64,000 nt of DNA. It comes from Marsupella aquatica (Eukaryota > Plantae > Marchantiophyta). The stretch's first letter is position 1; each line of letters opens with the position of its first letter. The translations under genes were made by a program, and so were the position numbers. Positions 21,026-47,774 of this stretch are shown piece by piece. The notes beneath the pieces were generated by a model. The model worked only from the letters and a program-made list of their open reading frames with translations, was not told the origin of the DNA and made no database searches. The DNA is taken from assembly GCA_973895155.1 (NCBI GenBank), contig OZ316892.1:3289223-3353222 (forward strand), written 5' to 3'.

Positions 21026-23544
21026 TACTTTTCTCGGTGGCCCGTGCGCCTGCCTTCCTACTTTCGTTCTTATGGACTCTCCTTAGGTTTTCATTCACCT
21101 GGTTTTGGACTTTTTGCTCCGGTGGAATCTGTCTTGACAACTTGTGTTTGTTCTAATTGTTAATATCTCAAGAGGGTCGTCAACTAAGCTGAAAGGAGTC
21201 AAAGCTAACTACAAGCTAGCAAATACAGAGAATGCTCCCAAGTTGAGTCAGGAGGAAGTTACTAAAACTAGACCTTCACAACTCTCGAAACTGGAAAGTG
21301 AAATTCAGCGTGAGACACGTAGCTGAAGGCCACAAGGATAACTATATGGCCACGCTGTCCCCCATTCAAGTCCAAAGTCCTCTTCAGATTGTCTGAACTC
21401 CTATTGAATGTATTGAATAATTATTTCATCACAGAAATTTTCAGAACAAACACGGAAGCACCAGGGGGCTGAGGATTGGATATTGAGGCTGAAGACATTG
21501 AGGTAATAAACTAGGTGTGGTTCGGGTGACAATGTTAGCAACTGATGCTTCTTCAGGGGAACTTCCCATGTGCAGTTTATCCACACATGATTGACTTTGG
21601 TTCTTGCTGTTTTTCTTTTGGTGTACTCTTGAGTTTGGTGTCACTCTATCCTTTCCTGTAGCCTCGAAATAGGAACACACCTGCTTAGTGGTCCCCAATC
21701 GCCCAATGATTTATAATGACTGTGTCTAGGTGATGTATGCATTGCGTGTTCATTCCAGAAGAATGAATATGTACACTTTGCACAAACCTGGACAGATTTT
21801 GAATGTTATTTATCTGAGTTTCTGTTTGTGAGCTCTGACTTGGAGCCTTAACATTTGTGTTTCTGTGGGGCTGAGCAGAGTTTGTTCCGTCTAGAAGCTG
21901 CTGTACTGAAGTGATCAGCCTCCGGCTTGGAGGTGAATCTTCAATTTTTTGTGGATCCGAGTGACTTCTGTCCAGCTGAGTTTTGCTTTGTCGGGACGAT
22001 TGTGTTTGGCTAAGATGCTAGATTGTGGCTTGTCTTCTTGCTTCCAGCTTGTGTATTTTCAATTAATAGAAGTTGGGAACAAAGTGATAATTGAATTTCC
22101 TTATATTAAGCATCTTCACCTAGAAACTCAATACATAAACTCCAGGATTCCCTCGGGACATAAAATGAGCCAAATTGTCTCAAAATTGGGAACCTGCACC
22201 CGCACTACTCAAACAATTGTGTTGGGCTTGGTGGCCTTGTAAGTCGTCTTTAGCTTTCGCAATGGAGGTTGAATCTTGCAGTACGTCAAGGGGAACTTGA
22301 TCTTTGAATCATGGAACTGCTTGGTACTTTCTCGCTTGCACAGAGAGACAGGGACTGTCGTAGTCTTCATGATCTGGATGCAAGGGAACCGAACTCTATG
22401 ACAAGAAGCCATCTCATCATACATCTACTCTGCAGCTCCGTTTCTTGTGGTATCACAATATTCCTTGTACATGTTGTGATAACCTGTACGACTCTGATAC
22501 GTGGACCCAGATACCGAAGTTCTTAATTGTGGTGGGCTTCTTTTCGAAGATCTGGTAGACACATTATTCAACATTTGCTAACTTCGAAACTAGAAGGGTA
22601 ACACATTAAACAACAGAGAAACTCACAACATCCTCCTTTGGTCCTTCAGAGTCTGTACTTTGATTCTGAAGTTTGACTGAGTTTTTGTTTACTAAAAGAA
22701 TGTGACTGTGTAAGAGTTCCGTTTGGCAGTGGATTGGTTGAAGCACTTCATGCTAGTGTGTTGTCCACAGCTCTTCAACCAGCTTTCATCTTCCTTGTCT
22801 TTCACCACTTACGATGACATCAATTCAGCTAAGACCATAGAAGGTTCCAAAGCATCTAACTTGTAAAATCGCATTCTGTTACATCAAGGACTAAGGTGTT
22901 GGGTGCCAAAGGAGACAACACAACAAACACGCTGAAAAGACTTCAGGACTGGGTTCAACAAGGTAGTGAAGGTGCTTAGAGCCATAGTAAGTATGCATTC
23001 TGTATCTTTCTCTGTTGATGTGAGCTTGTGCATAATGGGAGTTGTAGTTGGCAAGAGTTCCAAATATGAATAGATCCAGAAGTATGTGATCATGTACTTG
23101 CTCTATAAAGTTCTGAAGATATAAGCATTTTCTGTTAGACCAGGCAACTTGGGAGTTGGTAAGTGTCACCTGCATCTAAGGGGCTACACCGGGGCATCAG
23201 TGGAGGTTCACTTGCACAACACGACAACCAGTGAATTTTCTCTCTGCTGCAACCTGCAAGGTGAGACTTTCGGTCTTTCTGGATGAAAAAACAGGAGTTT
23301 AATATGATTGATATACATGTCCGTCGAGAATATGGGTTTATCACCAAGCTCTTTGTCTTAGGAAACTCATAAACTCAGAATCAAATATGTACTATGCACG
23401 TTTCATGCTATGTGTATACTATGACCTGTAGTTGGAACCAAGACAATGAGTGGGAACTGATTAGTTTAGGTGGTTGCTGTTGGCGAGGCAAGTCGACCTC
23501 CTGCTCACCTTGCTCATCAAAGGACGTGAACAGAGGACATCACA

Positions 23545-24009
23545 ATGAGAGCAACACTTATGGTGAGGACCCGCAACGCTGAACATGTGCGACTTGCACT
23601 CAAGGCAGAGATGTTGCGCCTTGAGTATGTCAGACTTGGGATCCTTCCAGCCCAGTCTGCATGGTACTTTGAGTACCCTGTTGTTTCCAGGAACAACTAC
23701 AGCCGGCCTCTACCTGCTTCAGTACCCTTCCCGACATCCTTGGTATTTGTGTCTCTTGTACATGACCCGCCACAAATTAGGTGCCAAGGGTGTGTACACA
23801 GTTGCCAATATGACTGTCCTGCCTGTAGGGCTTCTGGCCCAAAATTGGATGACCGTTCTCTTGGATGCCGATTTTTGCACAGAGCACAATGTATCATTTG
23901 GAACCACTCGCCATCCTGCAGTGTGCCTGGTGATGTCACTTGTCCTGCCCTCCCAGACCCCACCACCGGTGACTTTGGTGTCTACACATGTTTGGATCAC
24001 ATGCTCTAG
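23545..24009 (+). CDS. Cys/His-rich ORF of unknown function inside the inner CACTA
   Basis: 154-aa ATG-initiated ORF containing CQGCVHSCQYDCPAC...GCRFLHRAQC; no family recognised. Confidence 0.3.
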   Translation: MRATLMVRTRNAEHVRLALKAEMLRLEYVRLGILPAQSAWYFEYPVVSRNNYSRPLPASVPFPTSLVFVSLVHDPPQIRCQGCVHSCQYDCPACRASGPKLDDRSLGCRFLHRAQCIIWNHSPSCSVPGDVTCPALPDPTTGDFGVYTCLDHML

Positions 24010-24536
24010 AGGACCACTTGTCACACCGCATGCACAGACCAGATACCATTGACCTATAGCTTAACACTCTGACTTCAACACAGAGGATATTTACTTAAAA
24101 TTTTGATGTATGAGCAATTTTGGGTCCAGGGTTTAGGGTCAACAGTACATAACTTATATCCTATTATGCCTGCACTAAGCAAAATATCCTAATTTAAGAG
24201 GCTAGCAAACTCGCATAAAAGTCTCTATTGAAAGATTGCTTTCATGACTGCTTTAATCTGGTGAACATTGCAACGTTGAATGATTAATGGGCCATGTGAT
24301 AATATGCAAAATGATTTATGCCTCACTTATTTGTCTCAGCCACTATCATAACCTATTTAGGATGTATAAATTTCAACCCTTATGACACTGCTTCATACCA
24401 ATCCTCTTCGAAGAATGCCTGTTTTACATGTCACGACTATTGTATGTGATTCAAATGCATGAAATGTTGTTGCAGATCTCCTTTGATCAACCTATTCATT
24501 AAAAGTGTATTTTCTTTTGTTCACAAATGAGTCTTG

Positions 24537-24616
24537 AAATGTACACTTTCATGTCCCCAAATGTACACTTCAAGACACCCAAATGTACACTTTTGTGTCT
24601 CTGAATGTACACTTTA
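24537..24616 (+). repeat. Left subterminal AAATGTACACTTT motif array
   Basis: Four copies spaced about 21-23 bp apart just inside the left TIR. Confidence 0.85.
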
Positions 24617-24867
24617 TAGGCCAAATCACATTAATATTATATTAATAAATAATACATATTATATTATTTAATAACTCACATAGAAATGGAGGATAAAAAT
24701 TTATAAAGTTATTTCATCCCCATTTAAGGACCAGATATTCTGTGAACAAAATAACATCATTCCAAATAGATTATAAAATATCTTTATACAATTATCTGCA
24801 AATTTACATTGAATACGAACATGTTTCTAGTACTATCCAAGGGGCTTAACACAAGTCAATTAAATAT

Positions 24868-26001
24868 CTAAACCAAGTGCTCCCTACAATGTGTATTTGA
24901 GCATGTGCCCCTGTCTCCTTTCCTATCTACCCTATTGTCACGGTTGCAACTCACTTTATTTTCAGGGAGTTGAAATCTGGTGGTGTTGTTCCTAATGGCT
25001 ATAATCTCCCGCAAAAAGTGTCTGGGATTTTCTCTATATGGACCTGAATAGTCCTTTCCTAAAAATGATTTAGCAAGTGAGTTGACAAGTGCATTGTCAA
25101 GTTCCACCTCAGGACGTAAACTACATATACGGTGCTTTACATTCCAAGGGATCTCATTACTGTTGAGGTCCAACACACTATGTGTAAACTGTGACTTCCA
25201 AATTTTTGCTGCAAATCTCTTGCTAAGTTGATCATAAGTAATCTCATTTTTTGCCTTGTCTCTCTTCATGTGCAAAAGAGACCACTTTGGAGAGTTGAGA
25301 AGAAGATAGCATCTAATGTCACTTGCATGTGATAGTTTCTCAAGACATGGCCAAAGAATTGCTAGAAGAAAATTATCTCCACGATTGGCATGCGTGTAGG
25401 GCACTGGAAATAATCCGGTCATGTCTGGGTTGGCAAATGCCTTAAGGGGGGAGTCATCCACAAGGAGGGTGTTGGTTTCATCATATAGATTTCCAAATGC
25501 ATTCCATACCACCTGAAAATCCTTCAGTAGCACATTTGCCTTTCCGTTTGTAATGTCACGCCTTTGAATGCCTGTGTCAAAGGCTTCCACCTGTGTGAAT
25601 ACAAACTTAAGTTTCAACCGCTCCTCAACAGTGAACATCATGTTCAGCATTTTCACTGTTCGTTCTACCCCAGCACAAGTCCAAATTGCAACGTCAAATC
25701 TGTCAAAAACCAACTTTAGAAACTCATGGAGCCCTGGTCGTTCTGTATACATGCGACTAATACCATTTTTTCTATCCCAATGCACTCCACTTGAGGTGAC
25801 AATATTCCTGGATGTGCCCTTGTTTTGGAATTCAATAGAATCCCAAAGTATTTTATTAAGGTCCAAAATCAGCAACTTCCGCTTGACGGGACCAGGTCTC
25901 GATTCTGCAAGTGCACCAAACACCATTCTCAGAGAAAAGACCAAAAGTGAACTTTGGATTAGGATTGTCTCAGTCCAAAAATACAACACAATGGCTGACA
26001 A
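24868..26001 (-). CDS. FCP1/NIF (HAD-like) phosphatase-homology domain; coding exon probably 25904-24868 plus mini-exon 26083-26024
   Basis: KLLILDLNKIL, ERPGLHEFL..FDVAIWT, LLKDFQVVW, NTLLVDDSPLKAFANP are NIF-family motifs. DLN replaces the DxD motif. Confidence 0.8.
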   Translation of the reverse strand: MSAIVLYFWTETILIQSSLLVFSLRMVFGALAESRPGPVKRKLLILDLNKILWDSIEFQNKGTSRNIVTSSGVHWDRKNGISRMYTERPGLHEFLKLVFDRFDVAIWTCAGVERTVKMLNMMFTVEERLKLKFVFTQVEAFDTGIQRRDITNGKANVLLKDFQVVWNAFGNLYDETNTLLVDDSPLKAFANPDMTGLFPVPYTHANRGDNFLLAILWPCLEKLSHASDIRCYLLLNSPKWSLLHMKRDKAKNEITYDQLSKRFAAKIWKSQFTHSVLDLNSNEIPWNVKHRICSLRPEVELDNALVNSLAKSFLGKDYSGPYRENPRHFLREIIAIRNNTTRFQLPENKVSCNRDNRVDRKGDRGTCSNTHCREHLV

Positions 26002-26143
26002 AAACGAAAATTAACCTACATACCGTTTTTAGAAGCCTCACAATGTGTAGACGGATATGGAGACTTTAATTGGTGAGCCCATTCTGTGAGACCGAGAAGT
26101 ATTTTAGATTGATATGAATAAATAGAAAGTCAAAGGCTGAATT

Positions 26144-29100
26144 TCATTCCGAAATAAGAGATCCGTATTCATCAATAATCATGTCAGCACCAAGCTCCTG
26201 TTGGATTTCAAAATTGACATCTGAAGTACTTTGTTCTACCCAATAAGGAGAAGTCCAAACAGGAGTTATGAACCCCAATTCTCCCCTCTTATACTCCTCC
26301 TTATTGAGAATTGAAGGAGCAGCTTCCAATGATATTTCTTGGCCTCGATTTGGCCCACTTTTCCACACGTAACATCGTGCGTCGCGTTCCAATGACCTCC
26401 ATCCAGTTGATCCAACTCTATTCCCTTTCTTTTTTGAGAACGGAAGGACAACAGGACTCCTCGAGTGTGAACGAACAAACACCAATTTGTCATCAGAAGC
26501 TGAAAAGAGTGTGTCAGGACAAGTTGAAGCACCTGCCTGGTTGTCAACAGCCGTTGATGCATTTCCTCCTGGATTGATGGGAATGTCAGGCAATCCGCCG
26601 GCTTCCCCACGAGTCAATTCGTTAGTTTCAGCTTCATTTGAATCTCCAAGCCTCGTTGCGCCTTCGTTGATCAGATTGGTTGAAGAAAGATGATCAAACA
26701 TATCAACCCTTGCTCCTTCCAGTTGCTCCATCTGTCCTCCCGGCGTTGTTGGATTGGGATCATCCTTGTCCAAGTTATCATCAACTTGAACTTCATGGGG
26801 CCCCGGAGGGATGTCATCTAAACCAGATGAACGGTTTGGTGCAAGTCCAATATCATCATCTACATCGTAAGGCTCACCTTGACCAACACGGTCATCCAAA
26901 TTTTTGACATATGCCTCGTCTGATGCCTCTACGCCTTTAGCCACTTTGTCAGCAACATCTTCAGACTCAGAACCGTCGGATTCAACAGCGACAGCTACAG
27001 CCGCAATAGTGGTAGCCCATTGTCGAGAATTTTCAGCAAGTGATTCACAATGGGCTTTAAGTGAGGGAACTCTCTCGCAAAGGTAGGAAGCAAAAGCTTC
27101 CACAAAATGCCTCTCGGACTGAGAGTCACAATAAACAAAGCATTCCCTATCGCAAAAAAATGATGTCTTCATGACTTGGCCACCGGAGAAAAAATCTAGA
27201 ACCAAATCTCCCGGTTCTGATAAGGATTCAATAATCCTTTGGATCATCCGCGTGGGTTTGGCATGAGGATTAACCCATCCTCCGCGACTACCAACTGTCT
27301 CAAATCGAGGGGCCATATTCATAATCTTGACGGCCTCTTCCGGGTCCAAAACCACTTTTAGGTCGTCGTTTTGTGTCCCCTCATCTGATTCCTTAGCTTT
27401 CCCCTTTCCCTTGTCGATCTTGCATACTTCATAATCAACATCCTTTGAAGTATACAAGAATTTTGGCTTTGGATAGTTGGGCTTGAAAACTTCATTCCAA
27501 TTGACGTCTTCATCTCGAGAAATCCCTGCAAAGATAACTTCTTCAATCCCTCCACCCCAACATGAGTCATGAGGGTGCGGTTGATCATCTCGTGAATAAC
27601 TCCCATACTCAATGTGAATGGTCAAAGCTTTCTCTTGTCCCAATTTACGAAGGGCACCATGGACATTCAGTGCAAGTTGTCCAGGATGAACTGTTATCGT
27701 CACCACAATCGTGGGATTTTGTGGAAGCTCCACAATGTATTCAAAGAGAACAAGAATCTCTGCTTCAGTCCACTGTTTTTGTGGAAGCCGGCTAAAATCA
27801 ACAATGGCAAGAGGGCAGGTCGGAGGAGCTTCTTGCAATGACTCTGGATCAATGGTCTTCATGAGATTGTCGCTAAAAAATGTAACCCATGGTAGGGTCC
27901 GAGAACGTGATCCTCCGCCAAATCTCTGGCAGTATATATCATCTAGGCGGAATACCAATGCCGTCGGCAAGATTGCGCTCTCCCGCGTATGATTTGGCTT
28001 TAAAAGGTTGGCAAGATAGACCTCGCCAGCGGCTCTTCGACACCTGCTGAACTCTGAATCAATTGCTAGCGTAGGAAGAACCTCAACTACTTTCCCCCAA
28101 TTAGTATTTGTCGGGAAATTCACCGCATCCTTGGTGCAATAGTAGTCTTCAATAAGGGACTTGAGTTTCCGCACGATCTTCACATCTTTGGCCAACTCCT
28201 CTATAGATGGCATGTCTGATTTATTAGAGGCATCTTTCTTTAGCAATACCTTTCCTGACTTCACCCGCGTCAGTATTCTTGTGATGTCTCGTTGTGAGAT
28301 CAACTCACCATCAAAACAACGAAACATGGCAACAGTAATTGCTTTTTCAGACTTCTCATTTCCTTCTACACCAGCTCCATCGGGAAGTTTCCCATCCAAC
28401 CACAATTGGCATACCAAACTCCATAAATCAAAAAGAGCATTGTCGGCAAACAGTAACCAGTAGACATTACGACAATCTTTCCTTCCCATGGTCATTCTTG
28501 CAAGAGCCAACCAATCCTACAATTGCAAAGGAAAGTCTGTTAGTTCTCCATAACTCAATTGTTTGAAAGCACTCAGGTGCGGACTGAGACCATCCCAATC
28601 CAACACAGAAGTAGACAGTATCAGTGGAAATATTATATTGAATGTGCATGATTTAGTTTGGACTAGGACCATCCCAATCCAAAACAAAACTAGACGGTAT
28701 CAGTGGAGAAATATTCTACTGAATGTGCATGAATCCATTTGGACTGGGACCATCCCAGTCCAACACAAAACTAGACAATATCAGTGGAAATAGTCTATTG
28801 AATGTGCATGAATCCATTTGGACTGGGACCATCCCAGTCCAACACAAAACTAGACGATATCAGTGGAAATATTCTACTGAATGTGAATGTATCCATTTGG
28901 ACTCGGACCATCTCAATCCAAGGCAAACTTGAAGCTTTGTGGTCAAAGACTACCATCTCAATTGTAATCACACATGGAGAGTCTACGGTATTGTGCCAAT
29001 CAAGCAGTAACACTTCATACCTGAAATTTTTGATTGTCTTGAGCGTTTGTTTTGTTGTCCCCATGTTTTGGCCGGCTAGGTTTTCCACATTCCACAAATT

Positions 29101-31304
29101 GCCGCCTAGCATGAACGACTGTATCTTTGAAGCATGACTGAAACACCATCGTGCTATTGATAGCATTAGATCGCATTGAATGCTCAACTAATATTGATGA
29201 TGGTGTTCGATGAGATAATATTCTTGACTTTCGAAATTCCAGCTTTTTTGCCAATGCTGTTAGCTTGGCATCCTTGTTTGCCCATTCTCGAATCCATCTG
29301 GCTGCTCTGGCTGAATGTTGACCGCTAATGGCAAGGAATTGAACCTCCCCCTTTTTCACGGCTGCTACAAAGTCCCTCCTATCTGATTCCGTGTTGTCAT
29401 ATTGCATTAGGTTTCTATGTTTTGTAGTGTAAGGAATCAAGTCTGCTATGTGTGGTTCATGCCCCGGATTTCTTATCATGGAATTGGCCACCTCCTTTAC
29501 ATGGTCTGCATTCAACATTCTGTAACAGAGTCTTGCCGACGCAGGGAAAATACTCTCTACGGGAATAGAAAATATCGAATTGATCCCAAACGTATAATAT
29601 TGCTCCATTTGTTGTAGTACCTCATTACCTTCTAAGACCTTCTTCTCCTCAGGAGCGTCCAACTGCTCGTCCATATCTTGTGAATGCACTGTCAGGTTTT
29701 CTGTAGTGTCATCCATGATGACACTGTCAATTTTCTGTTTCTTCTTTTGTCTTGGCCTCTTTTCACTTGCACTTGGCTTCTCAACCGGACGTTTCTTCTC
29801 AACTGGCTTCTCAACTTGGCTTCTCGTACTCGGCTTCTCAACTGGCTTCTGAACTCGGCTTCTCGTACTCGGCTTCTCAACCAGCTTCTCAACTGGAAGT
29901 TTCTTTTCAACCGGAGGTTTCCTTTGGCTTTGTTTTTGTTTTCCCACTGCTCTTTGAGAGGTTGCTGCTGTAGTTCCCGCGGTCTCTGTTGTAGGTTCTG
30001 GAGCTTTCTCTGGCGCCTTCTCGGGCACAGGGTTTGTATTCACCGTTGGAAGGTTTCTCGTCTTTGACAAAGATTCTATCCATTGCTTTGCTTTGACTAA
30101 ATCAAAGTTGGGATCAAATGCAACATCCTTATCAATTAAAACACCAGGCTCCTCTGACTCCAACGATAACAATCCAACTTTCTCAAGTAAATTGCTTAAC
30201 GTCCAAGTAGTTGCAAAAGAGAAATTGCCTTGGTGCTTCATCATGTTGAGTTTCAAATATTGAAACCCATACATAATGTCTACTGGAAGCATACCAGTTA
30301 CCCCGATGACCAACTTCTTTGTGTCATATGTCTTTGGAAAAAATCCCATTGACAAAACGCTCAATTCACCACTTGCGTGCCATTCGACATTGAATTCTGA
30401 GGAGTATGCCTTTGACATAAGGTTAACTTTAACCCAGCATGACCTATCGTGCATCTCCAGAATGACCGAATTCATCCCTCTCCCTCCAATGCCAACAGAG
30501 ACCACAGGTCCGCAAACCAAAGTCAGGCTATCATTTGCTCTGCACTTTAAGGTCAAAACAGGTTCAATCGTGCTTGATGGCACTTCATTATTAAGCGGGG
30601 TTCTTGAGAACTCAAGCCCCCATCGGAAGCCTGGGGATCTCTCATCTAGTAAGAATCCGTCCCGGCAGTCGGTCGGTGCAATCGCGGGTTTGAAACCAAC
30701 AAGATCGCTCCCTGCATCATAAAAACATCATCCATGTTAGACTTATTAAGTTTAAAACATTTGAATAACTCTTGTTGGATTAGGATGGTCCTAGTCCAAC
30801 TTGAGATGGTTTTAGTCTTGCTCCTACAATCGAGATTCAATCTCCTGGATGGATTAGGATCATCCGAGTCCAAGTTTGGATTGGGATCATCCGAGTCCAC
30901 GTTTGAATTAGGATCATCTGAGTCCAAGTTCGGATTGGGATGGTCCGAGTCCAACTTTGGATTGGGATCATCCGAGTCCAACTTTGGACTGGGATCATCC
31001 GAGTCCAACTTTGGATTGGGATCATCCGAGTCCATGTTTGGATTAGGATCATCTGAGTCCAAGTTCGGATTGGGATGGTCCGAGTCCAAGTTTGGATTGG
31101 GATCATCCGAGTCCAACTTTGGACTCGGATGGTCCCAGTCCTCTAAGACTTAGGGAGGATAGGTGATGGATACTTACTAGGGATTCTTGATTGAAATTGT
31201 TTGGAGTCTTCAAGTGCCAGTTCTACACTGTCGCTCATAGAGGAGAGGTCAAACTCCTCTGTTGCTTCCACGGAGGACTTCACAAGGACGCGATTCGCTT
31301 CCAT
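26144..31304 (-). CDS. Spliced ParB-like plus N4/N6 DNA-methyltransferase-like protein; exons 31304-31178, 30711-29021, 28516-26144 (1396 aa; possibly extended to the NIF exons, about 1746 aa)
   Basis: Canonical phase-compatible GT-AG introns: 31177-30712 (A|GTAAGT...ATGCAG|GG) and 29020-28517 (CAG|GTATGA...TTGTAG|GAT). ParB-like YRMLNADHVKEVANSM...FLAISGQHSARA. MTase motifs X/I NPHAKPTRMIQRIIESLSEPGDLVLDFFSGG. No stops. Confidence 0.72.
28580..28925. repeat. About 79-bp tandem repeat (about 4.5 copies) in intron 2 of the cargo gene
   Basis: Unit CAGTGGAAATATTCTACTGAATGTGCATGAATCCATTTGGACTGGGACCATCCCAGTCCAACACAAAACTAGAC. It contains the reverse complement of the 27-bp core. Confidence 0.9.
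30775..31141. repeat. 27-bp minisatellite in intron 1 of the cargo gene
   Basis: Unit TTGGATTGGGAT(GG/CA)TCCGAGTCCAA(G/C)T, about 11-12 copies. Confidence 0.93.
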
Positions 31305-32366
31305 CTTTCTGACATGTGGCAGAGTGACACGTGGCTTCTTAGCAGGCGTCCGATTTAGGGCAATGAAAAAGAATGGAGGTGGAGGCGGAAGCAGGCAGAG
31401 GCGGGGAGGCGGAGAGAGAGCGGAGAGCAAAGAGCGAGGAGAGCGAGCGAGTGAAGGCAAAGAGCAGAGAGCGGAGGCGGAGAGTGGAGAGCGTGAGCAG
31501 AGTGAGGAGCGAAAGAGTGAGAATGAGAATGAGGTCCTGGCTGGACCTCTCCGTCCCTTTACCCCCTCCTGCCTCACCCCGGCCTGCGTACGGCCGGTTG
31601 CCTCCTTCTCCTACGTACGGCCTGATAGTGCGTACGGCTTGCTCCTGCGTACGGCCCGTTGCCCGCACCCTGCATACGGGCCTCCTTCCTTGATGTCCTG
31701 CCTACCTAACAGCCTTGCACGGTAGTCCCCGCGCAATTAGGCTCGTGAAGATAAGGTGTGCCGCAAGCTAAGGTGAAGGGGTACTCAACCCTTATCTTCA
31801 CGCGATTTCCGTTTGAGCCGACTCGAGCAAAGGGTATATTTCGGGAGACGCCCACTTCGGAGCTCATTCTTGTTCTAGTTTCCCAAATCTAAGCTCCATG
31901 TAATCCGGAGTTTCTCTTAAAGTGTTATGTATTGAGCCACTTACCTTCAATGGGTCAGCTTAGCCAGCTTCTTGACTTTTGGGGTCCTCTCAGTTTATCT
32001 TTTACAGACATGTGTGGTTTAGGGTTCAGTTTGTTTTTTACTCCCAAGATTTAGTGGCATATAGCTTGTATTTCAGGGTTCTGGGAAAGTTTTTACCAAT
32101 CTACAGACAACAATGTATCCCCCTTGGATGTGATATTCATATTCTACCAGATCTTAATACTAAGGTGAGTATAAGGTTAACGCATTCAAATATAAGGCTA
32201 GGTTTCATTATTTCATGAAACTGTATGTAGACATTAGGGTCTACCTTAAGACCACGCAAACTTTAGGCTACACCATATAGGGAGATCCGTAAAATACGGA
32301 GTCTTCCTAAATTTGGAATTTTCTTAGCTTAAAATGTTTGAAGTTTATCTCCCGTTACATTATGGG

Positions 32367-33135
32367 TTGGTCTAGGATGGTCCTAGTCCAAGTTTGGATT
32401 CAGATGTGGACTAGGATCATCCGAGTCCAACTTTGCATTGGGATCATCCGAGTCCAACTTTGGATTGGGATGGTCCGAGTCCAAGTTTAAACTTGGATGG
32501 TCCAAGTCCTAGTTTGGATTGGGATGGTCCGAGTCCAAGTTTGGACTTGGATGGTCCAAGTCCTAGTTTGGATTGGGATGGTCCGAGTCCAAGTTTGGAT
32601 TAGGATGGTTCAAGTCCAACTTTGGATTGGGATGGTCCGAGTCCAAGTTTGGACTTGGATGGTCCAAGTCCTAGTTTGGATTGGGATGGTCCGAGTCCAA
32701 CTTTGGATTAGGATGGTCCGAGTCCAACTTTGGATTGGGATGGTCCGAGTCCAAGTTTGGACTTGGATGGTCCGAGTCCAAGTTTGGATTGGGATGGTCC
32801 GAGTCCAAGTTTGGATTGGGATGGTCCCAGTCCAAATCCAGAATCGGAGGATCGTACTCCAAATCTAGACTCGGAGGATTCCAGTCCAAATCCGAACTCG
32901 GATGGTCCCAATCCAAATCCATAATCGGAGGATCGTAGTCCAAATCTAGACTCAGAGGATTGCAGTCCAAATCCGGACTTGGATGGTCCCGGTCAAAATC
33001 CGGACTCGGATGGTCCTAGTCCAAATCCAGAATCAGAGGATCGTAGTCCAAATCCGGACTTGGATGGTCCCGGTCCAAATCCGGAATTGAAGGATCGTAG
33101 TCCAAATCCAGACTTTGAGGATCGCAGTCTGAATC
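32367..33135. repeat. 27-bp-family minisatellite upstream of, or intronic to, the transposase ORF
   Basis: Same unit as 30775-31141, grading into GGATCGTAGTCCAAATCC variants. Confidence 0.93.
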
Positions 33136-33175
33136 AAAATTTGCATGACTTTGGTTGTAATCCATTTTTTTCAGT

Positions 33176-36100
33176 GTGCAGGATAATAGGAAAAGGATGT
33201 CTCAAAGGTTTTCTAGGGGCGATGATGTGACCTTGACAATGGATGGTTACGACGTTGGAAATGGGACAGTTCAAAAGACAGATCCGCAAGAGAGTGTTCA
33301 AAATATTGTGCTGGGAGAGAATCGAATTGGGGTTCTCATTGAGAAGGCCTTTGGTGAGACCAGGAAGCTCCCTTTTCCAATGCCTAGGGCGGAAAATCTT
33401 CATGATGCCATTGACTCATGTGTCATTTGGGATATGTCATGTGCATATCGATCTGCGGATAAGATTACTCAAAAACGCATCAGTATTGGTAGTTGTTCGA
33501 CTCGAAAAGATAACAACATCCATAATTCTGCAAATGTACAGGAGGATGCTTCGACCACCCTAAGGCCAGGTGATGAGGTTGAAATGTTTATCTCTGGCCA
33601 TTGTGTGGCCTTTGGAGTTGTTTTCAACACTGATCCAATGGAGAGATGTCATAACATATTACTCGGTGAGTCTCGGGTTAGTGTAAAAATCACAGATGTG
33701 ATTCATGGTAGTAAGACTTTACCTTACGCACATGGTGGAGCTGCAACAATTGAAGAGGCAAAGGGCTCCTGGGTTCTATGGGATGTGGCTGACGTCCACA
33801 ATAAAGTATGGAATGTTGATATCGATGGGAGCAACAAATCTTCCTCTAAGAAGCAGAAGGACAAGGCGGATTTTGTTTCACAGTCTTGTTCGGCAAACAC
33901 CACAGACACTAAGTGTGACTATTTTCATCGGGCAAACTGGATGTCAGAGTTGGTTGAACTCTACACTGGTTTGGATCGAACCAAAATGGTTGCCACGGGA
34001 ACGATCACTGTCCCTCAAGTGATGGCGGCAGTTGATGATGAAATTCTTGGTGATGACCATGTTGGGATTGCTGTGAAAGATGTCGTGGCAGCACAATACT
34101 TTCCCAACATCCACAAGGGAGTAGTGAGTTTGATTCGATGGCGGATTGATTCAACAAAACTAGTTGCAAATGGAAAATTTTTGTCAGATATTTTGGTGGA
34201 AGGTTCTGAAAGGATGGACTCAATGGATAGGGATGAACTCAATGCGGATGTAAGTGATAGAGGAGTACTGCGTTCAAGGCCCTACAATTTTAACAAGAGG
34301 AATCAAGTAGATCCAAATGAAAAGAAGAGGAGGTTGTTGGAAACCAAGGCAATTTCAAAAACAACAGAGGCGTCAATTGATGACGTGAAAAGAGAAAATT
34401 GTTGCAAGCAAAAATGTTGTCTCATTATCCCAAGGGAAAACATCGAAGATATTAGGATGGAATTTCATGGGATGTCAAGCGAGTCAAAAACGTCACACAT
34501 TTTCAACCTCTTTCACTATAGAGAGGATGATGTTCGTGATAAGGGACACCATGTTCTTAAGGGTATGGTCGTATGCAGACATGCATTTGCAATTATCCAC
34601 GGTTTTAGCCACACCAAATATTATGATTACAAAAGGAGATATGTGGAGGGTTGCAAAATTGGGTTCCATGGCAATACGGGCTTGATGAAAACAAGGGCAA
34701 ATACCTTGCATGCACGAGCTCTGTTGGAGGCTTTTTTGACTCGAAATGCAGAGCCCATGCCTCATATGCCTTATGGAGGGGCACATGGGACAGACTCTAT
34801 TGAGTACCGTCTTCCGGCGTGTTACAAAAAGCTAGAGATTCTGGAAGATGTGAGAACAAAGATGAAGGAAGAAGGGCTTCCTCCTGTCACAGAGAATACT
34901 CTCTACAAGATCTGGAGTAACTCATTTGCAAACTTCAGTTTTCATAAAGATGGTGCATTTGCCAAGTGTACTCTTTGTTGTGAATACAAAGACAGTTTGA
35001 TGCGAGAAAGAAGGAAAAAAGAACGTGCTGAAATTGAAGAAAAACGAGCGCAACATCTTCGTGAGCAAATGTCACGTAGATATGTTTACTACGCTCATCG
35101 AGTGATGGCCAAACAACACCCAGGAGAATATCTTTGCATTATTCACGACAAGATGGATCAAGCAAAGACATGGATTCCAAAAATGGTTAGTACTCCTAAA
35201 TCTCTTTCGGGTCATGGAATGCCGCTACCTATTGCTCTCACAGGGATGTTGACCCACGGGAGGGATCCAGGAGTTTATGCACACTTTAGTGTCACTGGCC
35301 TTTGGCCAGGAGATGCCGATTTCACGGTGACATCCTTGGCTAAGTGTCTTCGAGACCTTGAAGAGTACAATGGAGACAAGACAGGTGACATGTTGGATGG
35401 CCTTCATTGGGAACCTCACAGACCTTTCTTTCAAGCCCTACTTGACTTTGAAGCATTTTTGACGGGTTATTTGGAACCAAAGAATATACCGGTGAATAGG
35501 TATATTGGTTCTGAAGATGGAGCTGAGAGTCGGACTGAGACCGTCCCAAACCAGCAAGATGAGGATGATGGAGAAGACATGCAAGGAGAGCAAGGCAGTC
35601 CATCGTTCAAGCCCTTGCCAAGGCACCTAACATTGCAGATGGATAATTCAGCAAAGGACAACAAAAACCAGACTGTCATGGCATTTTGTAGCGAGCTTGT
35701 GAGTAGAGGAGTATTTGAAACTGTTCAAATGTCTTTTCTAATGGTTGGTCATACACATGAAGATGTTGATGCACTCTTTTCAAAGGTATCATATCAAGTT
35801 CAGCACAAAGAAGTTGCAACCCTCCTTGCTCTTATGGCAGAGGTATGGGAATGCGAGAGCATTCATCCAGTTCCCAGATTGATACAAGAAGTTGCATCTT
35901 ACAAAGAATATCTTCAAACTTTCAAGGTGAAAGATATTCAAGGTCACTCAAAACCTGTATCATTTCTTTTCTCTATGAGAGATAATGTACCAATATTTCA
36001 GTATAAGTCCCATGTAAAGCAAGCTTGGGCTCCACTTGGTGGAAGGTGCATTTGGGCAACAGATCTGACAACAAATTCTCTTCTTTTACCAAGTGGAGAG

Positions 36101-36958
36101 CCCTTAGCTAAATCCATTGGAGAGATACACAAAAAATCTGAAGAGATTATCCCATTTCTTAACAAGTACCTTGATTTTTTGAGAAGGAGTTGCACTGATG
36201 AGACATCTATAGCATATAAGGAAAGATTTCCTCTTGTGAAATATTGGGAGAGAATTGTGGAGTTGTTGACAAATGGGCTCGCACTAGAAGGGGAGGGAAG
36301 TACTCAATTTCCCTTGGAAAACAGATTTTGGCCTAAGACTAACCACGGCACTGGTTACAAGGTCAACCAACCGGAACAAAGTGGTCCTCCAAGTGAAGAT
36401 GAGGAGAATGCAGAGATGACGGCTCTTCAAAATGAGGTCTTGGAAGAGATGGAAGATCAGGCAGCACCATTTGTTGGATCTCGAGCTGAGAGAGAACAAG
36501 GACGATGGATTCCTTTACAAGATATTTGTGAAGGAAACTTTGTATTTCTTCGACCCGAGGATGACTGGGAGAATAAAAATGGTGGAGGTCATTTCTGGTT
36601 GGTGAGAGCTTTGGGTTTGGTGGACCCAAAGCATGAAGTCCCAACTACATCTTCAACAAACCCTTCTCTGCCTCGACAGTACGCTCCAATGTTCCCAGTT
36701 GAATGGTGGAGGCCTAAACACTCTAGTAAACTTGATGTGACTGAGAGTGCGCGGTATCTAAATTGTTTCATGTCCACTAAGACATGGGAACGAGATCCAG
36801 GGTTTGGTGAGAATACTCAACATTGGCAGTATGCAAATTCTGCAATGTATGGTTTTAAATCTGGAATGAAAGAAGAAAACATGGCAGGCAGAGGTTTGAA
36901 GATCCCTCGAAATGTTCTACAAACTGTCCAAAATTATCTTCAAAGGATGGACAAGTAG
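33176..36958 (+). CDS. Sola-like (DUF7869-type) DDD transposase with N-terminal repeated beta-barrel domains; true start probably in an upstream exon (acceptor TGTGCAG at 33181)
   Basis: CCKQKCC, VCRHAF and CTLC...H metal-binding motifs. Catalytic-type HDKMDQ, LTLQMDNSAKDNKN and FLMVGHTHEDVDALFS. C-terminal GNFVFLRP..FWLVRA..VEWW barrel. Lies within TIRs with a 4-bp TSD. Confidence 0.85.
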   Translation: MQDNRKRMSQRFSRGDDVTLTMDGYDVGNGTVQKTDPQESVQNIVLGENRIGVLIEKAFGETRKLPFPMPRAENLHDAIDSCVIWDMSCAYRSADKITQKRISIGSCSTRKDNNIHNSANVQEDASTTLRPGDEVEMFISGHCVAFGVVFNTDPMERCHNILLGESRVSVKITDVIHGSKTLPYAHGGAATIEEAKGSWVLWDVADVHNKVWNVDIDGSNKSSSKKQKDKADFVSQSCSANTTDTKCDYFHRANWMSELVELYTGLDRTKMVATGTITVPQVMAAVDDEILGDDHVGIAVKDVVAAQYFPNIHKGVVSLIRWRIDSTKLVANGKFLSDILVEGSERMDSMDRDELNADVSDRGVLRSRPYNFNKRNQVDPNEKKRRLLETKAISKTTEASIDDVKRENCCKQKCCLIIPRENIEDIRMEFHGMSSESKTSHIFNLFHYREDDVRDKGHHVLKGMVVCRHAFAIIHGFSHTKYYDYKRRYVEGCKIGFHGNTGLMKTRANTLHARALLEAFLTRNAEPMPHMPYGGAHGTDSIEYRLPACYKKLEILEDVRTKMKEEGLPPVTENTLYKIWSNSFANFSFHKDGAFAKCTLCCEYKDSLMRERRKKERAEIEEKRAQHLREQMSRRYVYYAHRVMAKQHPGEYLCIIHDKMDQAKTWIPKMVSTPKSLSGHGMPLPIALTGMLTHGRDPGVYAHFSVTGLWPGDADFTVTSLAKCLRDLEEYNGDKTGDMLDGLHWEPHRPFFQALLDFEAFLTGYLEPKNIPVNRYIGSEDGAESRTETVPNQQDEDDGEDMQGEQGSPSFKPLPRHLTLQMDNSAKDNKNQTVMAFCSELVSRGVFETVQMSFLMVGHTHEDVDALFSKVSYQVQHKEVATLLALMAEVWECESIHPVPRLIQEVASYKEYLQTFKVKDIQGHSKPVSFLFSMRDNVPIFQYKSHVKQAWAPLGGRCIWATDLTTNSLLLPSGEPLAKSIGEIHKKSEEIIPFLNKYLDFLRRSCTDETSIAYKERFPLVKYWERIVELLTNGLALEGEGSTQFPLENRFWPKTNHGTGYKVNQPEQSGPPSEDEENAEMTALQNEVLEEMEDQAAPFVGSRAEREQGRWIPLQDICEGNFVFLRPEDDWENKNGGGHFWLVRALGLVDPKHEVPTTSSTNPSLPRQYAPMFPVEWWRPKHSSKLDVTESARYLNCFMSTKTWERDPGFGENTQHWQYANSAMYGFKSGMKEENMAGRGLKIPRNVLQTVQNYLQRMDK

Positions 36959-37210
36959 ACTTAGTTGTTAGAAGCTATAATAATTAAATAGATAGTTACT
37001 AGTTTTTATGTAACTAAGATAGTCACTCATTCAAACATAGTAATTTATGTACTAGTTATTTACTATTCTAATAGTTTTAATGTGATACTATCTCCTCATT
37101 TTCTAAACTTTTGATCATTATAAATATGAATGTTTGCTTTTTCTACATAATTAAAAATGTTTTTCTATTCATTCCTTTCTTTTAAATGATTATAATAAGA
37201 GTTGGTAGGC

Positions 37211-37535
37211 AAATGTACACTTTTTAGGCCAAATGTACACTTTATTGCACTAAAAGTTACACTTTCTAGACCAAATGCACTTAAATGTACACTTGTTAAG
37301 CCAAATGTATGCATTTTGCACTCAAATGTACACTTTCTAGGCCAAATGTACTCAAATGTACACTTTTAAAGCCAAATGTATCTATTTTGATGTTCAAATT
37401 TACACTTTTCATTGCCCAAATGTACACTCTTTAGGCCAATTGTAAACTTTTCTATCCCCAAATGTACACTTTTCATTGGCCAAATGTACACTTTTCCAAG
37501 CCCAAAAGTACACTTTTCACTGCCCAAATGTACAT
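37211..37535 (+). repeat. Right subterminal AAATGTACACTTT motif array
   Basis: More than a dozen perfect or degenerate copies at about 20-22-bp spacing, in the same orientation as the left array. Confidence 0.9.
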
Positions 37536-37715
37536 AAATCAAATAATAATACACTTTTAATGAATAGGCTGATTTTGGTGAATCATAGCCACAATTAAAA
37601 TTGAGGTGTTGGTGGAGAAATTGTATTAGGGGATCAGTTTTGTGTGTGGGCTCAACATACCAAAAGTATGTGTGCTCTGCATCCTTGTGTGGCCATTCCA
37701 ATTCATTGCAGTAGC

Positions 37716-37859
37716 AAATGCCTTTGTACCTTAAATGCTAAATATATTTTACTTTCTGTGCAGTCTGCTAAATTGTAGAGTCTATCTAAATGCCTTTGTA
37801 CCTTAAATGCTAAATATATTTTACTTTCTGTGCAGTCTGCTAAATTGTAGAGTCTATCT
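37716..37859 (+). repeat. Perfect 72-bp tandem duplication
   Basis: AAATGCCTTTGTACC...AGAGTCTATCT at 37716-37787 and 37788-37859. Confidence 0.92.
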
Positions 37860-37870
37860 CATGCGCAGGC

Positions 37871-38551
37871 ATGGCACGGCCTAAAATTCAAGCCAAAAAG
37901 CGTGTGACAGAGGTGAGAAACACAGGTGTACTTGGGGCAGATGCTACTAACTTCTTTGCAAGTCAGATTTTCCAGAAGGCAGCTCATTGTTGTGCCATTT
38001 GTGACGATGGTGGGGGCCTGGTCATTTGTGAGGGCCCTTGCATGAGGCATTTCCACCTCAACCCGGAGTTTGACCTTGCTGCAGAAAACAACTGTCCAGG
38101 GGTGGGCCTCCCGTCAACACACCAGGGAGACTGGATGTGCACTGATTGTTTGGAGAAGCAGGCTAAGTGTGCACAGTGTGGGAAGTTGGGATCCTATGAG
38201 GGCTCTGTTGATGCTGCAGCAAATGTTAGGAAATGTCCAGACCATTTTTGTGTGAGATTTTTCTGTTTTGAGTGTTTGCCTGCTCATGCCACAGCTTGCC
38301 CACTTCATAGGTGCAAGGCATGTGGTGAGCATGATGATGACTACTGGACTGACATAGTCCACTGTGCTAGGTGTCCCACTATGTGGCACTATCATTGCCT
38401 GAAAGATCATCAAGCAGAGGGTTATGCTTGTGACAGAGAAATCTATGATCACTCTGCACATGGTGTTGATTGATGGATATTTTATTGTCATCGCCATGCC
38501 ATTGATCCTACCTCGCGCACTCCTGTGAGAGATCACATATCTTGGCTGTGA
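37871..38551 (+). pseudogene. Stand-alone EDM2/NSD-type composite PHD-finger gene with one premature stop
   Basis: CAICDDGG..CEGPCMRHFH..CxxC..CAQCGKLGS..CPLHRCKAC..CARCPTMWHYHCL. After TGA at 38471 the frame continues WIFYCHRHAIDPTSRTPVRDHISW, matching the EDM2 IYC..H.ID....TPVRDH motif. Confidence 0.82.
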
Positions 38552-39137
38552 AGCTGAACATTGTACATGCACAGTGCACCTGATGTGGATGTACTATTTT
38601 TTGAGATTGCAGAGATTCCAATTTTGAAAAGGAGTTGGGTAGGTGAGTTTATATAGGCAGCACTTATCTTGTGCTCTGGCGTCAGTGGCTCGGTACATGC
38701 CTATACAAACTTATCCTTACAAGCCTTCTTGGAAGTATTTAGGCTGAGTGGTCATTTTCATAAACACTTTCATCAAACTGCTAAATTAAAACAGGACTTC
38801 TAAGTTGTAAGCGTATAAATTATCAGGCATGCAATTAATCAAATTGCCCTATAAGTTTGTCATTGAATGTATCCTCCTTTACAACAAAATATGTATGTGC
38901 CATGACAAGTTGGTTGCACTTCATTTCACCACGGATATGGATTTTGTAGTATATATTCAAACAATGTCCTGCATCCGTGCAGGTGCCTAGTACGTATTGT
39001 TCACATATCCCTTGTACCTATCAAAATCGGACCTGAGCACCAGTGGGCCAGATCAACTCAAAAAGCAGGAATTTTGTTGTCCTTGTATTGTCAGGTGAAC
39101 CCATTCTTCCAAAATTCACTGTCATCACGTAGGGTGT

Positions 39138-40016
39138 GTGTACATGGAGCCTGGTAAACGTAGAAAGTGTGACCACCCAGCAGTGTTTACAGGGGTCAGA
39201 GCGATTTTGGTCCATGGCCAGCATGGGTTGACCAAAGTGCATTGGCCAATTGTACAGAAACGATTCTCTGAGCTCCATGGCACTGTAGTTCAGGACATCA
39301 CTCCAGAGACTACACATGTTGTTGCAGGGACATGGCTATCAGTGATAAAGAAGTGGTCATGGTCCTACATGAATTCTGCAATTACTAAGCAAGGCCTAAA
39401 AGTAGTTGAGGCCTCTTGGATCACAGATTCCATAGCACATAAGATTGTACAGGATACTGAGCAATATGAGTTGTGGGAGGATGAAGAAGCTACTGCATCA
39501 GCTTGGGCTGAACAAGAAGTCTGGGAAGCAAAGGCACGGCTTGCTGATCTCCAATATGGACCTGTACTCAACAAAGGACAGAGCTCTACAAGGCTGAAGA
39601 GTATGTTGGCTGAGGAGACGAAGCAACCAACCCCCATTCTGAAAGGGCTGAGCATGGTATTTGTGGAGGCGGGAATTGGAGAGGTTAAGTGCAAAGTGTA
39701 CAAGTCCACAGTGCTTGACCTAGGTGGGACAGTGGAGGAGAATATAACAGAGGACACCACTCATGTCATTACTAAGTCATATCCCAAAGCCTGCCGCAAG
39801 TTTGGGAAGGGAGACATTCGCTTTTATGTCATGTCCCATAATGTGTTTGTGGTTTCATATGCTTGGCTTGTGGAATCAGTAGCAGCTGGGAAGCGTCAAA
39901 ACCCAATGGACTATGATCTTTTTGAGGCCTGGCCACGGAAGGGTCAAGATCCTTACAGAGAGGACTATGAGACAACAAGTGAGGAATGGGTCATTAGCGA
40001 TTCTGAATCAGAGTGA
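39138..40016 (+). CDS. Tandem BRCT-domain protein
   Basis: Two repeats: VFTGVRAILV..GTVVQDITPETTHVV..VVEASWITDS..YEL and ILKGLSMVFV..LGGTVEENITEDTTHVI..VVSYAWLVES..YDL. Confidence 0.82.
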   Translation: MYMEPGKRRKCDHPAVFTGVRAILVHGQHGLTKVHWPIVQKRFSELHGTVVQDITPETTHVVAGTWLSVIKKWSWSYMNSAITKQGLKVVEASWITDSIAHKIVQDTEQYELWEDEEATASAWAEQEVWEAKARLADLQYGPVLNKGQSSTRLKSMLAEETKQPTPILKGLSMVFVEAGIGEVKCKVYKSTVLDLGGTVEENITEDTTHVITKSYPKACRKFGKGDIRFYVMSHNVFVVSYAWLVESVAAGKRQNPMDYDLFEAWPRKGQDPYREDYETTSEEWVISDSESE

Positions 40017-40449
40017 GGAGTAGTAGCATCAGTTTGGACACAAGTTTTTTTGTATAAATCAGATCATTGAAATAAATGTGATCTTTGAACTAATGTACCT
40101 TGTTATGGTTGGTGGCAGTTGGGCTTATTTTACTGTTGGCGGATTGTTGTTTCCTGCTGCCTGGGGGTGTCACTGTAAACGTACATGCAAAGGCGGTACA
40201 TTTGAGGACAGCAGAGGAGGTGGTGACACCCTCCAACATTTAGGAATTTTGTGTCATTCACTTGACAATAGGTACACTACTTGCGAACCTGTTTTTTTCT
40301 TTTGGGGTGGTTTAGGGTTTGTGAGAATTTAGTACACGTTATGTTAACTCTTTTGGCAGATACAGTCAGGGATATATGGAACACAAATACCACCATTAGG
40401 CATCCTTGTTCACTGCTGTCCATGACTGCAGAGCTCCCAGCCTGTTACA

Positions 40450-43400: not shown

Positions 43401-44181
43401 TGGTTGTTCGTTCAGGGAGTATGAGTCATTGAAGGCGGCCCATCCCACTGTAGGAACAACTTTTCCAGGTTTCATGGAGTGGATCAGAGTGGCAATTAGA
43501 GAGCATCACGAGACCCACCCAGACATGGATGCAGATGTTTACCTACTGTCTAATGCCCCTAGCCTGAAAGTGAAGACTTACAAACGGATGAGAGCATATG
43601 GGAATCACTTCCGAGTGAAGGATGGTGATAGTGCCTACAGGGTGACGAATGACTGCGGGCTCATCACTGTATTTGAGCAACAGAGCCACAATCACGACAG
43701 GGCCTGGATGGAGATGGGATATGTGGGAGAATTAGTTGACATATGGGCTCTGGACTATGGGGCGGTGTCCAGTCCTGTGATTCTTATGAAAGGTTCATGG
43801 GTGCGGCAGGATTGGCTTGGTAACAGGGCTACCATGAAGAGAGACAACGACGGTTTCTTGCTGGCCAATTTTAGAGGGAAATTGCCCGAATGGTCTGAGC
43901 CATTTGTGTTTCCTAGTCAGGTGGAGCAAGCTTTCTTCCTGGATGTGGAAGACTCCCCAGGTTGGCGTGTAGTGTGTCATAAACAGGCCAGGCAACGTCG
44001 GATGAAAGGATCAAACCTTGAGTTTCATTTACACTCTCATAGTGCCTTTGATCGTCGGCGTTCAGACCAAGTGCCTGTAGTTCATGATAGCGGGGACTTC
44101 ATTCCTGTGACAAGGGTAGATGCATTTGCTGAAGGAGGCGAATTCAGAGATGCAGATGCCAACAGTGTGCCTGTGCCATGA
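40450..44181 (+). pseudogene. CACTA TnpD transposase; exons 40450-42273, 42397-43298, 43416-44181; one in-frame stop
   Basis: CPCAIC, IHACPDGH..CPKC, RNVRLGLSLDGVNP, YNLPPW, IADYPA, DVMHIEKN, MKSHDYH, FPPAFFD.MTHLLVH, ARWLYPLERY and EPFVFPSQVEQAFF match the Transposase_21/DUF4218/DUF4216 pattern. TAA at 42874. Confidence 0.93.
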
Positions 44182-47300: not shown

Positions 47301-47774
47301 TTAGTTGGTATGACACTCCCAGGTGATGAACCTGCTACTGTGACAGTCCTAACAGAGGAACCTACTGAGCCTAGCTTCACTACTGTGAAGAGAGGAAGCA
47401 TGTGCACACGAAGCAAGTCTGCTGGTGGGAGCAGAGCCACGTCAAAGGTTTCATACAAACCTCCAAGAACAGTGCTGGCAGAAAGATCTAAGGTGGAAGT
47501 GGGGAAAGCACCTAATGCTGAGGGACAAAGTGGCTTGTTAGCTGTTGATGAGAGTGGAACACGAGTAGGATTTGCCAGAGTGCAGGTTGGTTCCACAACG
47601 TTCCATGGCAAGAGGATTCCCCCAGGTTATTCAGTAGTGTTAGTCACATTACTAGTGAAACCTAAAGCTATCCTTCCCATTCCAAACACAAATGATGATC
47701 CTCCTCAAAAGACACTTGGAGATGCTGCAGGTTCTTTGGTATTATGGCCAAGCAAGTTCATAGAGGATCCATAA
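44338..47774 (+). pseudogene. Multi-exon CACTA TnpA/ORF2-like gene
   Basis: Coiled/acidic and Gly-rich exons. Transposase_24-like exon PPPASCDDKVWARLVAYF..KKSSQMTEAR..TGRTG. C-terminal VGFARV..FHGKRIP..LPIP..TLGDAAGSLVLWP domain. In-frame TGA at 46098. Exon limits are approximate. Confidence 0.72.

Follow-up and report, generated by a model that had tools for sequence, protein, structure and literature searches.

The window analysed here is a 64,000-nucleotide stretch of the genome of the liverwort Marsupella aquatica (contig OZ316892.1, positions 3,289,223 to 3,353,222 of the forward strand, numbered below from 1). It contains, at 24486..37573, an intact, mobile transposon with terminal inverted repeats (TIRs), 13,088 bp (about 13 kb) in length, which carries a large accessory (cargo) gene in addition to its transposase. 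Both ends are fixed from the sequence: the two 26-bp TIRs are identical at 25 of 26 bases, with a single mismatch, their length is within the range of 11-1124 bp of Sola TIRs, and TTTG immediately flanks both of them, forming a 4-bp target-site duplication (TSD). An intact transposase gene and an oppositely oriented three-exon cargo gene are encoded, and the open frames of the element total about 9 kb. The unit, its TIRs and TSD, the two divergent genes, the large transposase and the extent of coding sequence had been proposed earlier from the letters alone (the original prediction), and all of them are confirmed. The features of the element are as follows.

24482..24485, unstranded: left copy of the TSD, TTTG (sequence and empty-site contigs).
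24486..24511, plus strand: left TIR, 26 bp, 25/26 match to the right end.
24537..24615, plus strand: left subterminal 22-bp repeats with the core AAATGTACAC, 4 copies (repeat mapping).
24868..25926, minus strand: NIF/FCP1-like frame (PF03031) with DLNKIL in place of DxDxT, starting at an ATG at 25926 or through a GT-AG intron near 26021-25908.
26144..28516, minus strand: cargo exon 3, with a helical domain, methyltransferase (MTase) fold, acidic linker, conserved C-terminal domain and stop (frames, model).
26147..26530, minus strand: conserved C-terminal domain ending in IDEYGS, 30-43% identical to homologues outside Riccia.
27041..27901, minus strand: predicted beta-class amino-methyltransferase fold, with DFSR at the motif IV position and DFFSGGQV as motif I (AlphaFold2 (AF2), Foldseek, VIA).
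27917..28516, minus strand: conserved all-helical domain between the ParB and MTase folds (model helices 2-199).
28517..29020, minus strand: cargo intron 2, holding 5 copies of the palindrome spaced 79-81 bp apart (repeat mapping).
29021..30711, minus strand: cargo exon 2, with an N-terminal region, a K/E/P-rich linker and the ParB-like domain (frames, splice model).
29192..29581, minus strand: predicted ParB/Sulfiredoxin (Srx)-like fold with the motif ISGQHS (AF2, Foldseek, VIA).
30712..31177, minus strand: cargo intron 1, holding 12 copies of the palindrome at a 27-bp period (repeat mapping).
31178..31304, minus strand: predicted cargo exon 1 (ATG, GTAAGT donor and phase match; homologue support absent).
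31305..32366, unstranded: putative promoter region between the divergent genes, rich in G+C around 31.3-31.9 kb (sequence).
32367..33105, unstranded: palindrome array upstream of the transposase, 23 copies at a 27-bp period (repeat mapping).
33197..36958, plus strand: transposase, 1253 amino acids (aa), DUF7869, with the invariant acidic motifs HDKMD, QMDNS and GHTHEDVD and three N-terminal repeats (profile match, alignment).
37210..37535, plus strand: right subterminal 22-bp repeats with the core AAATGTACAC, 12 copies (repeat mapping).
37548..37573, minus strand: right TIR, matching the left TIR.
37574..37577, unstranded: right copy of the TSD, TTTG (sequence and empty-site contigs).

In Logan contigs, which derive from four studies, each of the 30 bins of 22000-40000 is represented, and many of the pieces are divergent. 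At 24485 two X2 and nine X3 contigs run on into the sequence past the right-hand TTTG, and at 37574 three X6 contigs run on from the sequence preceding the left-hand TTTG; as these contigs join the two flanks across one TTTG, the empty site carries a single copy of it. Because the element is nested in CACTA-like units, the empty sites are possibly paralogous, and these contigs may represent other copies of a multicopy host repeat instead of this allele. One X3 contig matches from exactly 24486 and is preceded by 176 unrelated letters, indicating a second insertion site. An X3 contig fusing 25700 to 37085 was also observed, likely an internally deleted non-autonomous derivative. An Rfam scan of 24000-38000 produced no match.

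The transposase frame extends over 33161-36958, with the first ATG at 33197, and matches DUF7869 (E 2.9e-43). Its 35 relatives show 32-57% identity, and the named ones are all from Riccia sorocarpa. Across 16 aligned transposases no variation is seen at the acidic residues D663/D666, D828 and D868/D870 (numbering starts at 33161), and we take the motifs that contain them to resemble those of Sola. The transposase profile retrieved from PDB sequences one chance row and nothing informative, and a scan of viral contigs gave seven pattern matches, none of them related. The lineage is called Sola-like because of the 4-bp TSD and these presumed motifs. A TSD of 4 bp is reported as a feature of the Sola superfamily (PMC10741241). 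The target preference given for Sola1 is AWWT (PMC3845634), which TTTG at the single site read (CAAA on the reverse strand) does not fit, and for the target of the Ectocarpus element Sola1-1_Ec32 a supplement gives no more than a bias towards a final A (PMC12477816). Three related repeats make up the N-terminus of the transposase (33212-34195), several homologues are annotated with PF26133, and by eye a CACTA-associated frame at 46881-47771 has a comparable stretch.

All splicing of the cargo gene is predicted from sequence. Exons 31304-31178, 30711-29021 and 28516-26144 have GT-AG ends and agreeing phases and, with one stop, would encode a protein of 1396 aa. The junction of exons 2 and 3 is backed by two contiguous homologues (P0064 and P0155), and a metagenomic locus, L001, has a short intron at the same position as cargo intron 2; from metagenomes the cargo query retrieved a single contig, at 1.8 kb too short for linkage. 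The stop at 26144-26146 closes the gene, so that the protein ends in IDEYGS and four further residues, and an E-Y/F-G-S/T motif at or near the C-terminal end is also present in eight of the collected homologues.

The original prediction placed ParB-, MTase- and NIF-like domains in one spliced gene. The ParB and MTase folds are found there, and the NIF domain is likewise present in the element, its frame being covered by the full PF03031 profile (E 1.8e-15), the match that had been anticipated, and 35% identical to the Riccia protein P0170. However, the NIF frame starts behind the cargo stop, and fusions occur only in predicted Riccia models, 14 of which have a NIF match, while four of them unite NIF with ParB and MTase in a single predicted protein. 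NIF thus belongs to the cargo module, but here it probably forms a third, separate gene, given the position of its reading frame. A fusion of NIF to the cargo in this copy is rejected, in view of the stop and the conserved C-terminal motif. The catalytic motif of NIF/FCP1 CTD phosphatases is DxDxT; it is changed to DLNKIL in the window and to DVEGLL in 13 of the 16 matching rows. One cargo-related Riccia model (P0178, R1sor_012722) is named BAH domain-containing at its source, which could reflect a fusion or an error in the gene model.

Modelling of exon 3 with AF2 (pLDDT 88) yields a complete beta-class amino-methyltransferase fold. In VIA the model matches CcrM (Z 17.6, root-mean-square deviation 3.6, 217 aligned), and 21 chains have a Z of at least 8 before the scores drop to 5.2; CcrM was also retrieved by Foldseek (E 2.9e-7), while at the sequence level the MTase region matches RsrI (E 4.8e-9). 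The permuted Rossmann arrangement of the beta class, with motif IV before motif X-I, is found in the cargo. An Atlas search with the helical-MTase region, which provides a lead only, scored best (0.89) with unnamed clusters and 0.81-0.82 with PF01555 clusters.

The MTase fold of the original prediction is thus present; its catalytic motifs are unusual. None of 84 aligned relatives, rows that include many Riccia paralogues or fragments and are not independent, has (D/N/S)PP(Y/F/W) at motif IV, and no such motif occurs anywhere in exons 2-3. The position is occupied by DFSR in the window and among the 84 rows by DLTH (28), DVTH (16), DFSR (12) and other words, with Asp kept in 80 and the fourth residue mostly Arg or His. 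As a control, 47 prokaryotic loci that match the cargo at motif X-I only, and are ordinary beta-class enzymes fetched by motif I, were inspected; 40 carry a canonical motif IV, and seven lack it in their trimmed frames. Motif I, the place of the F-x-G-x-G loop that binds S-adenosylmethionine (SAM), reads DFFSGG in 62 of 87 rows, with a loop one residue shorter than in the bacterial controls, and the TT of this region is replaced relative to the bacterial enzymes. In solved beta-class structures motif IV is described as holding the target base through its Asp/Ser, the carbonyl of its Pro and its aromatic residue (PMC10406627), and a change of SPPY to APPA is reported to abolish the activity of N4CMT (PMC8885841). 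The fold of the cargo is thus likely to be catalytically dead, as judged from the model and alignment, and the DNA-marking device envisaged in the original prediction is unsupported, since motif IV is replaced across the family.

An active enzyme with an unusual D-x-x-R/H site, writing N4-methylcytosine (4mC) or N6-methyladenine (6mA) as a self mark on or near the repeat arrays of the element, is an unlikely alternative. It would be consistent with the complete fold, the nearly constant Asp, the Arg/His at position 4 and the frequent DFFSGG, as well as with the CG present in many copies of the palindrome described below, and self-modification is a published hypothesis for Sola1-1_Ec32. The missing (D/N/S)PP(Y/F/W), whose residues hold the target base in solved enzymes, the short motif I loop and the replaced TT argue against it.

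The C-terminal part of exon 2 has a moderate match to the ParB/Srx fold. Its AF2 model (pLDDT 81) retrieved Noc, ParB, PadC and Srx as top Foldseek rows (best E 1.4e-3), and the top eight VIA rows are all of the ParB/Srx fold (best Z 7.5, root-mean-square deviation 3.4, 98 aligned), with KorB, SbnI and SerK also among the leading matches of this fold. The ParB-like domain of the original prediction is thus borne out by both fold searches, but PF02195 itself matched none of 28 cargo family members at E up to 1. The canonical nucleotide-binding motif of ParB is GxxR; the cargo has His-Ser at the place of the arginine (ISGQHS in the window), invariantly in the six aligned rows. Conserved catalytic motifs that depart from the canonical ones are therefore a feature of all three enzyme folds, ParB, MTase and NIF. 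The helical domain between the ParB and MTase folds has no clear VIA match (best Z 5.0) and is a candidate DNA-binding part.

The element contains a 25-bp palindrome, an 11-3-11 inverted repeat, in 42 copies at no more than 4 mismatches, all 42 of the copies in the 64-kb window lying inside the element. The palindromic repeats are thus element-specific, as originally described; they do not, however, simply fill the introns, since 17 copies lie in cargo introns 1 and 2 (12 and 5), 23 lie upstream of the transposase, one is inside exon 3 and one precedes NIF. Two arrays on either side of the promoter region hold 35 of the 42. The subterminal regions carry a different 22-bp repeat, all 11 exact copies of its core being within the element. 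The observed/expected CpG ratio is 0.66-0.68 in the cargo exons and 0.16-0.39 in five flanking CACTA-associated frames, two other frames having 0.75 and 1.11; the lesser CpG depletion of the cargo exons is suggestive at most.

With arrays on both sides of the promoter, and with KorB, a ParB-family repressor, among the top fold matches, the cargo could repress its own element in an autoregulatory circuit. This is quite improbable, because the known plant analogues with such a layout are described as activators and because the cargo exons retain more CpG than their neighbours.

The cargo belongs to a family. A search of 1.84 billion representatives gave 107 matches, one of which is a bacterial-type MTase matching at motif X-I only; relatives overall show 37-48% identity, and three long matches 37-45%. 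A further search gave 81 matches, all of them Riccia sorocarpa models, and a relative is also present in Calypogeia fissa, so that the named cargo relatives are liverworts only. About 89 cargo models, dispersed and largely partial, are found in Riccia. The prokaryotic genome scan revealed no sequence relative beyond motif X-I.

Linkage of cargo and transposase was assessed with Riccia sorocarpa gene tags, the lists of which are incomplete and which carry neither orientation nor TIRs. Four of the 56 transposase tags adjoin one of the 89 cargo tags, where 0.4-0.5 would be expected (p 0.001-0.002 for uniform placement and 0.0002-0.0006 for local shifts), and six lie within three genes of one. The association is concentrated in the transposase clade of the window, with three of five tags adjacent to cargo as against one of 51 outside it (post hoc Fisher p 0.0014), in a quick tree from which P0026 and P0247 were left out and placed by identity. 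Between two of the Riccia loci, identity is 91% for the transposase and 92% for the cargo. Among public contigs of near-window copies, 18 of the 27 listed cargo changes are synonymous, compared with 22-27% expected, in a listing that covers 40 of 388 rows and in which the changes are not independent, several coming from one contig; in another contig set the synonymous share is 5/8 for the cargo and 11/17 for the transposase. These patterns suggest that the cargo is under purifying selection and is a conserved, family-level trait of these elements. The co-occurrence and selection expected in the original prediction are thus visible as adjacency above chance and a synonymous excess, but co-divergence was not detected over six pairs. 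Neither of the outcomes that the prediction held against itself, a one-off host capture or missing folds, was found, as there are family relatives and both the ParB and the MTase fold.

Two other roles for the cargo bear on these data. A captured host gene, travelling as a passenger without function for the element, would fit the spliced structure and the separate locations of most cargo and transposase tags in Riccia. It is very improbable in view of the number and dispersal of the Riccia models, the significant adjacency, the synonymous excess and the same pairing described in algae (PMC12477816). The cargo might instead serve as a transposition cofactor, comparable with the second protein of Harbinger or the TnpA of CACTA elements, acting at internal sites in transpososome assembly or targeting and having no role in silencing. 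Its tie to one transposase clade and the purifying selection would accord with this, and ParB proteins are able to bridge and clamp DNA. It is nevertheless unlikely, since the palindromes are internal and surround the promoter, the ends carry the different 22-bp repeat, and the high-copy Riccia sister clade is mostly without an adjacent cargo tag.

The best explanation, held tentatively, is that the cargo of this intact Sola-like transposon is a long-standing accessory protein that binds the element's own palindromes and keeps the divergent promoter active, its MTase fold being dead. The ParB and helical parts would read the palindromes as ParB reads parS, and the cargo would probably bind as a dimer, since the palindromic site is two-fold symmetric. 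The MTase fold would be a DNA-gripping, dimerising or SAM-sensing scaffold, not a writer, and might shield DNA or recruit host factors; the NIF protein, with its changed catalytic motif, could act as a companion factor. The outcome would be self-activation or anti-silencing of the VANC/TnpA type, and by analogy with these systems self-recognition or anti-silencing by the cargo is plausible.

Several observations weigh against the binding and activation proposed here. The retained Asp of motif IV and the common DFFSGG fit preserved SAM chemistry, the aligned rows that document the motif IV loss are partly redundant, and the pairing of DFSR with DPPY is deduced from the model, where DFSR follows the equivalent strand; the profile alignment extended over the motif X-I region alone. 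The ParB match is of moderate strength, with none of the family members recognised by PF02195, and the intron of L001 is without a palindrome array. The CpG ratios of the transposase (0.47) and NIF (0.38) are near that of the CACTA Tnp2 frame (0.39). For 50 of the 56 transposase tags of Riccia the incomplete lists show no cargo tag at a distance of up to three genes, and transposase relatives may spread without cargo; a Mantel test of co-divergence over six partial Riccia pairs is flat (r 0.05; 307/720 permutations), and the selection estimate draws on the partial, non-independent listing of changes.

A more elaborate version of the accessory role, distinctly unlikely, is a phage ParB-methylase turned into a eukaryotic parS/ParB anti-silencer built of three pseudo-enzymes. 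The ParB clamp would load on the 25-bp palindromes and spread, the dead methylase would grip or flip cytosines and shield them from host 5-methylcytosine (5mC) enzymes, and the NIF-like protein would engage RNA polymerase II. If true, this three-pseudo-enzyme system would amount to an epigenetic shield, portable and programmed by sequence, that has no relation to VANC.

The arrangement has published counterparts. The 21.5-kb Ectocarpus element Sola1-1_Ec32, with 282-bp TIRs, encodes on the strand opposite to the transposase a 1104-aa protein with ParB-like and N4C/N6A MTase parts; its authors propose self-binding and self-modification by this accessory protein and cite similar proteins in green and red algae (PMC12477816). 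Both are large Sola-type elements with a 4-bp TSD and a ParB-like plus amino-MTase gene opposite the transposase. By comparison with its description, the present element differs in its land-plant host, its 13-kb size and 26-bp TIRs, the added NIF frame, the family-wide non-canonical motif IV and the mapped internal palindrome arrays. Plavaka elements of the red alga Bostrychia are reported to have a ParB gene beside tandem inverted repeats (bioRxiv 2025.02.11.637652), and their accessory genes PAG2/PAG3 resemble the Marsupella element in the ParB-like gene near such arrays and in a PF01555 gene in the same element. Unlike it, they are described with an EnSpm-type transposase and with ParB plus 2OG oxygenase and MTase plus SET on separate genes. 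The candidate new architecture of the original prediction was therefore already in print, and a categorically new system is rejected in view of these algal ParB and MTase transposons. In the literature outside subscription journals and Repbase, no paper was found that describes a land-plant version, loss of motif IV or a companion gene of the NIF type. The Ectocarpus supplement also names Sola1-1_PPa, presumably a moss element, in which the layout may already exist.

Among plant systems, VANC motifs are tandemly repeated within introns and ahead of the VANDAL transposase (PMC5735166), and the present element shares with VANC and Spm TnpA an accessory gene and element-specific tandem-repeat motifs in non-coding DNA (PMC5735166; bioRxiv 2026.08.24.746577). 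The folds differ, the cargo having no DUF1985, DUF287 or TnpA match in Pfam, and anti-silencing is reported as demonstrated for those systems, whereas here it is only suggested. CcrM, M.RsrI, M.MboIIA, M.PvuII, N4CMT and MpDN4MT1 have the same fold with motif IV before X-I, but the cargo differs from them in its missing (D/N/S)PP(Y/F/W), its shortened motif I and its being part of a 1396-aa transposon protein. The order of ParB followed by MTase is described for phage ParB-MTase proteins (ParB-Tls loci; PMC4738411), which have only 10-14% identity to the cargo; in the fold search against viral proteins, a 494-aa phage protein named ParB/Sulfiredoxin ranked second. Algal MTases fused to ParB-HTH are also reported (PMC4738411), as are DIRS1 MTases that are inactive. 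The element had also been proposed as a vehicle for the entry of amino-MTases of the DN4MT1 type into plants. This was not borne out, and a link to the 4mC writer DN4MT1 is unsupported: MpDN4MT1 has the motif TSPPY, and SPPY is absent from the cargo, its 107 matches and 271 collected proteins.

The algal papers, as published, leave open the function of the ParB-methylase accessory proteins. That motif IV is lost across the family speaks against the proposed writing of 4mC or 6mA, at least for the plant proteins. If the cargo is an anti-silencer, such a function would have been invented independently a second time, next to VANC, and might offer a tool for epigenome targeting. The question is testable in a genome silenced by 5mC, given an intact copy with defined ends, a candidate binding site, and liverwort relatives with transgenic and methylome tools.

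The element is inserted in an inner CACTA-like unit (18049-48629) with CACTAG ends and CTT on both sides, which is in turn enclosed by an outer CACTA-like unit (16736-60824) with CACTAG ends and TTT on both sides. The CACTA Tnp2 frame is located at 40426-44178, and upstream of it (37844-40013) are PHD-finger (NSD-like) and twin BRCT frames, apparently a chromatin-reader cargo of the host CACTA. A SET-domain frame (53781-54449; PF00856, E 1.4e-5) is found in the outer unit. Further frames, at 10470-13982, encode a KN-type homeobox and, without interruption, an AGC-like kinase of 388 aa, and positions 1-300 of the window recur at 13440-13739 (82%). Finally, a G+C-rich, CpG-undepleted deaminase frame (63351-63998; PF00383) is probably a host gene.

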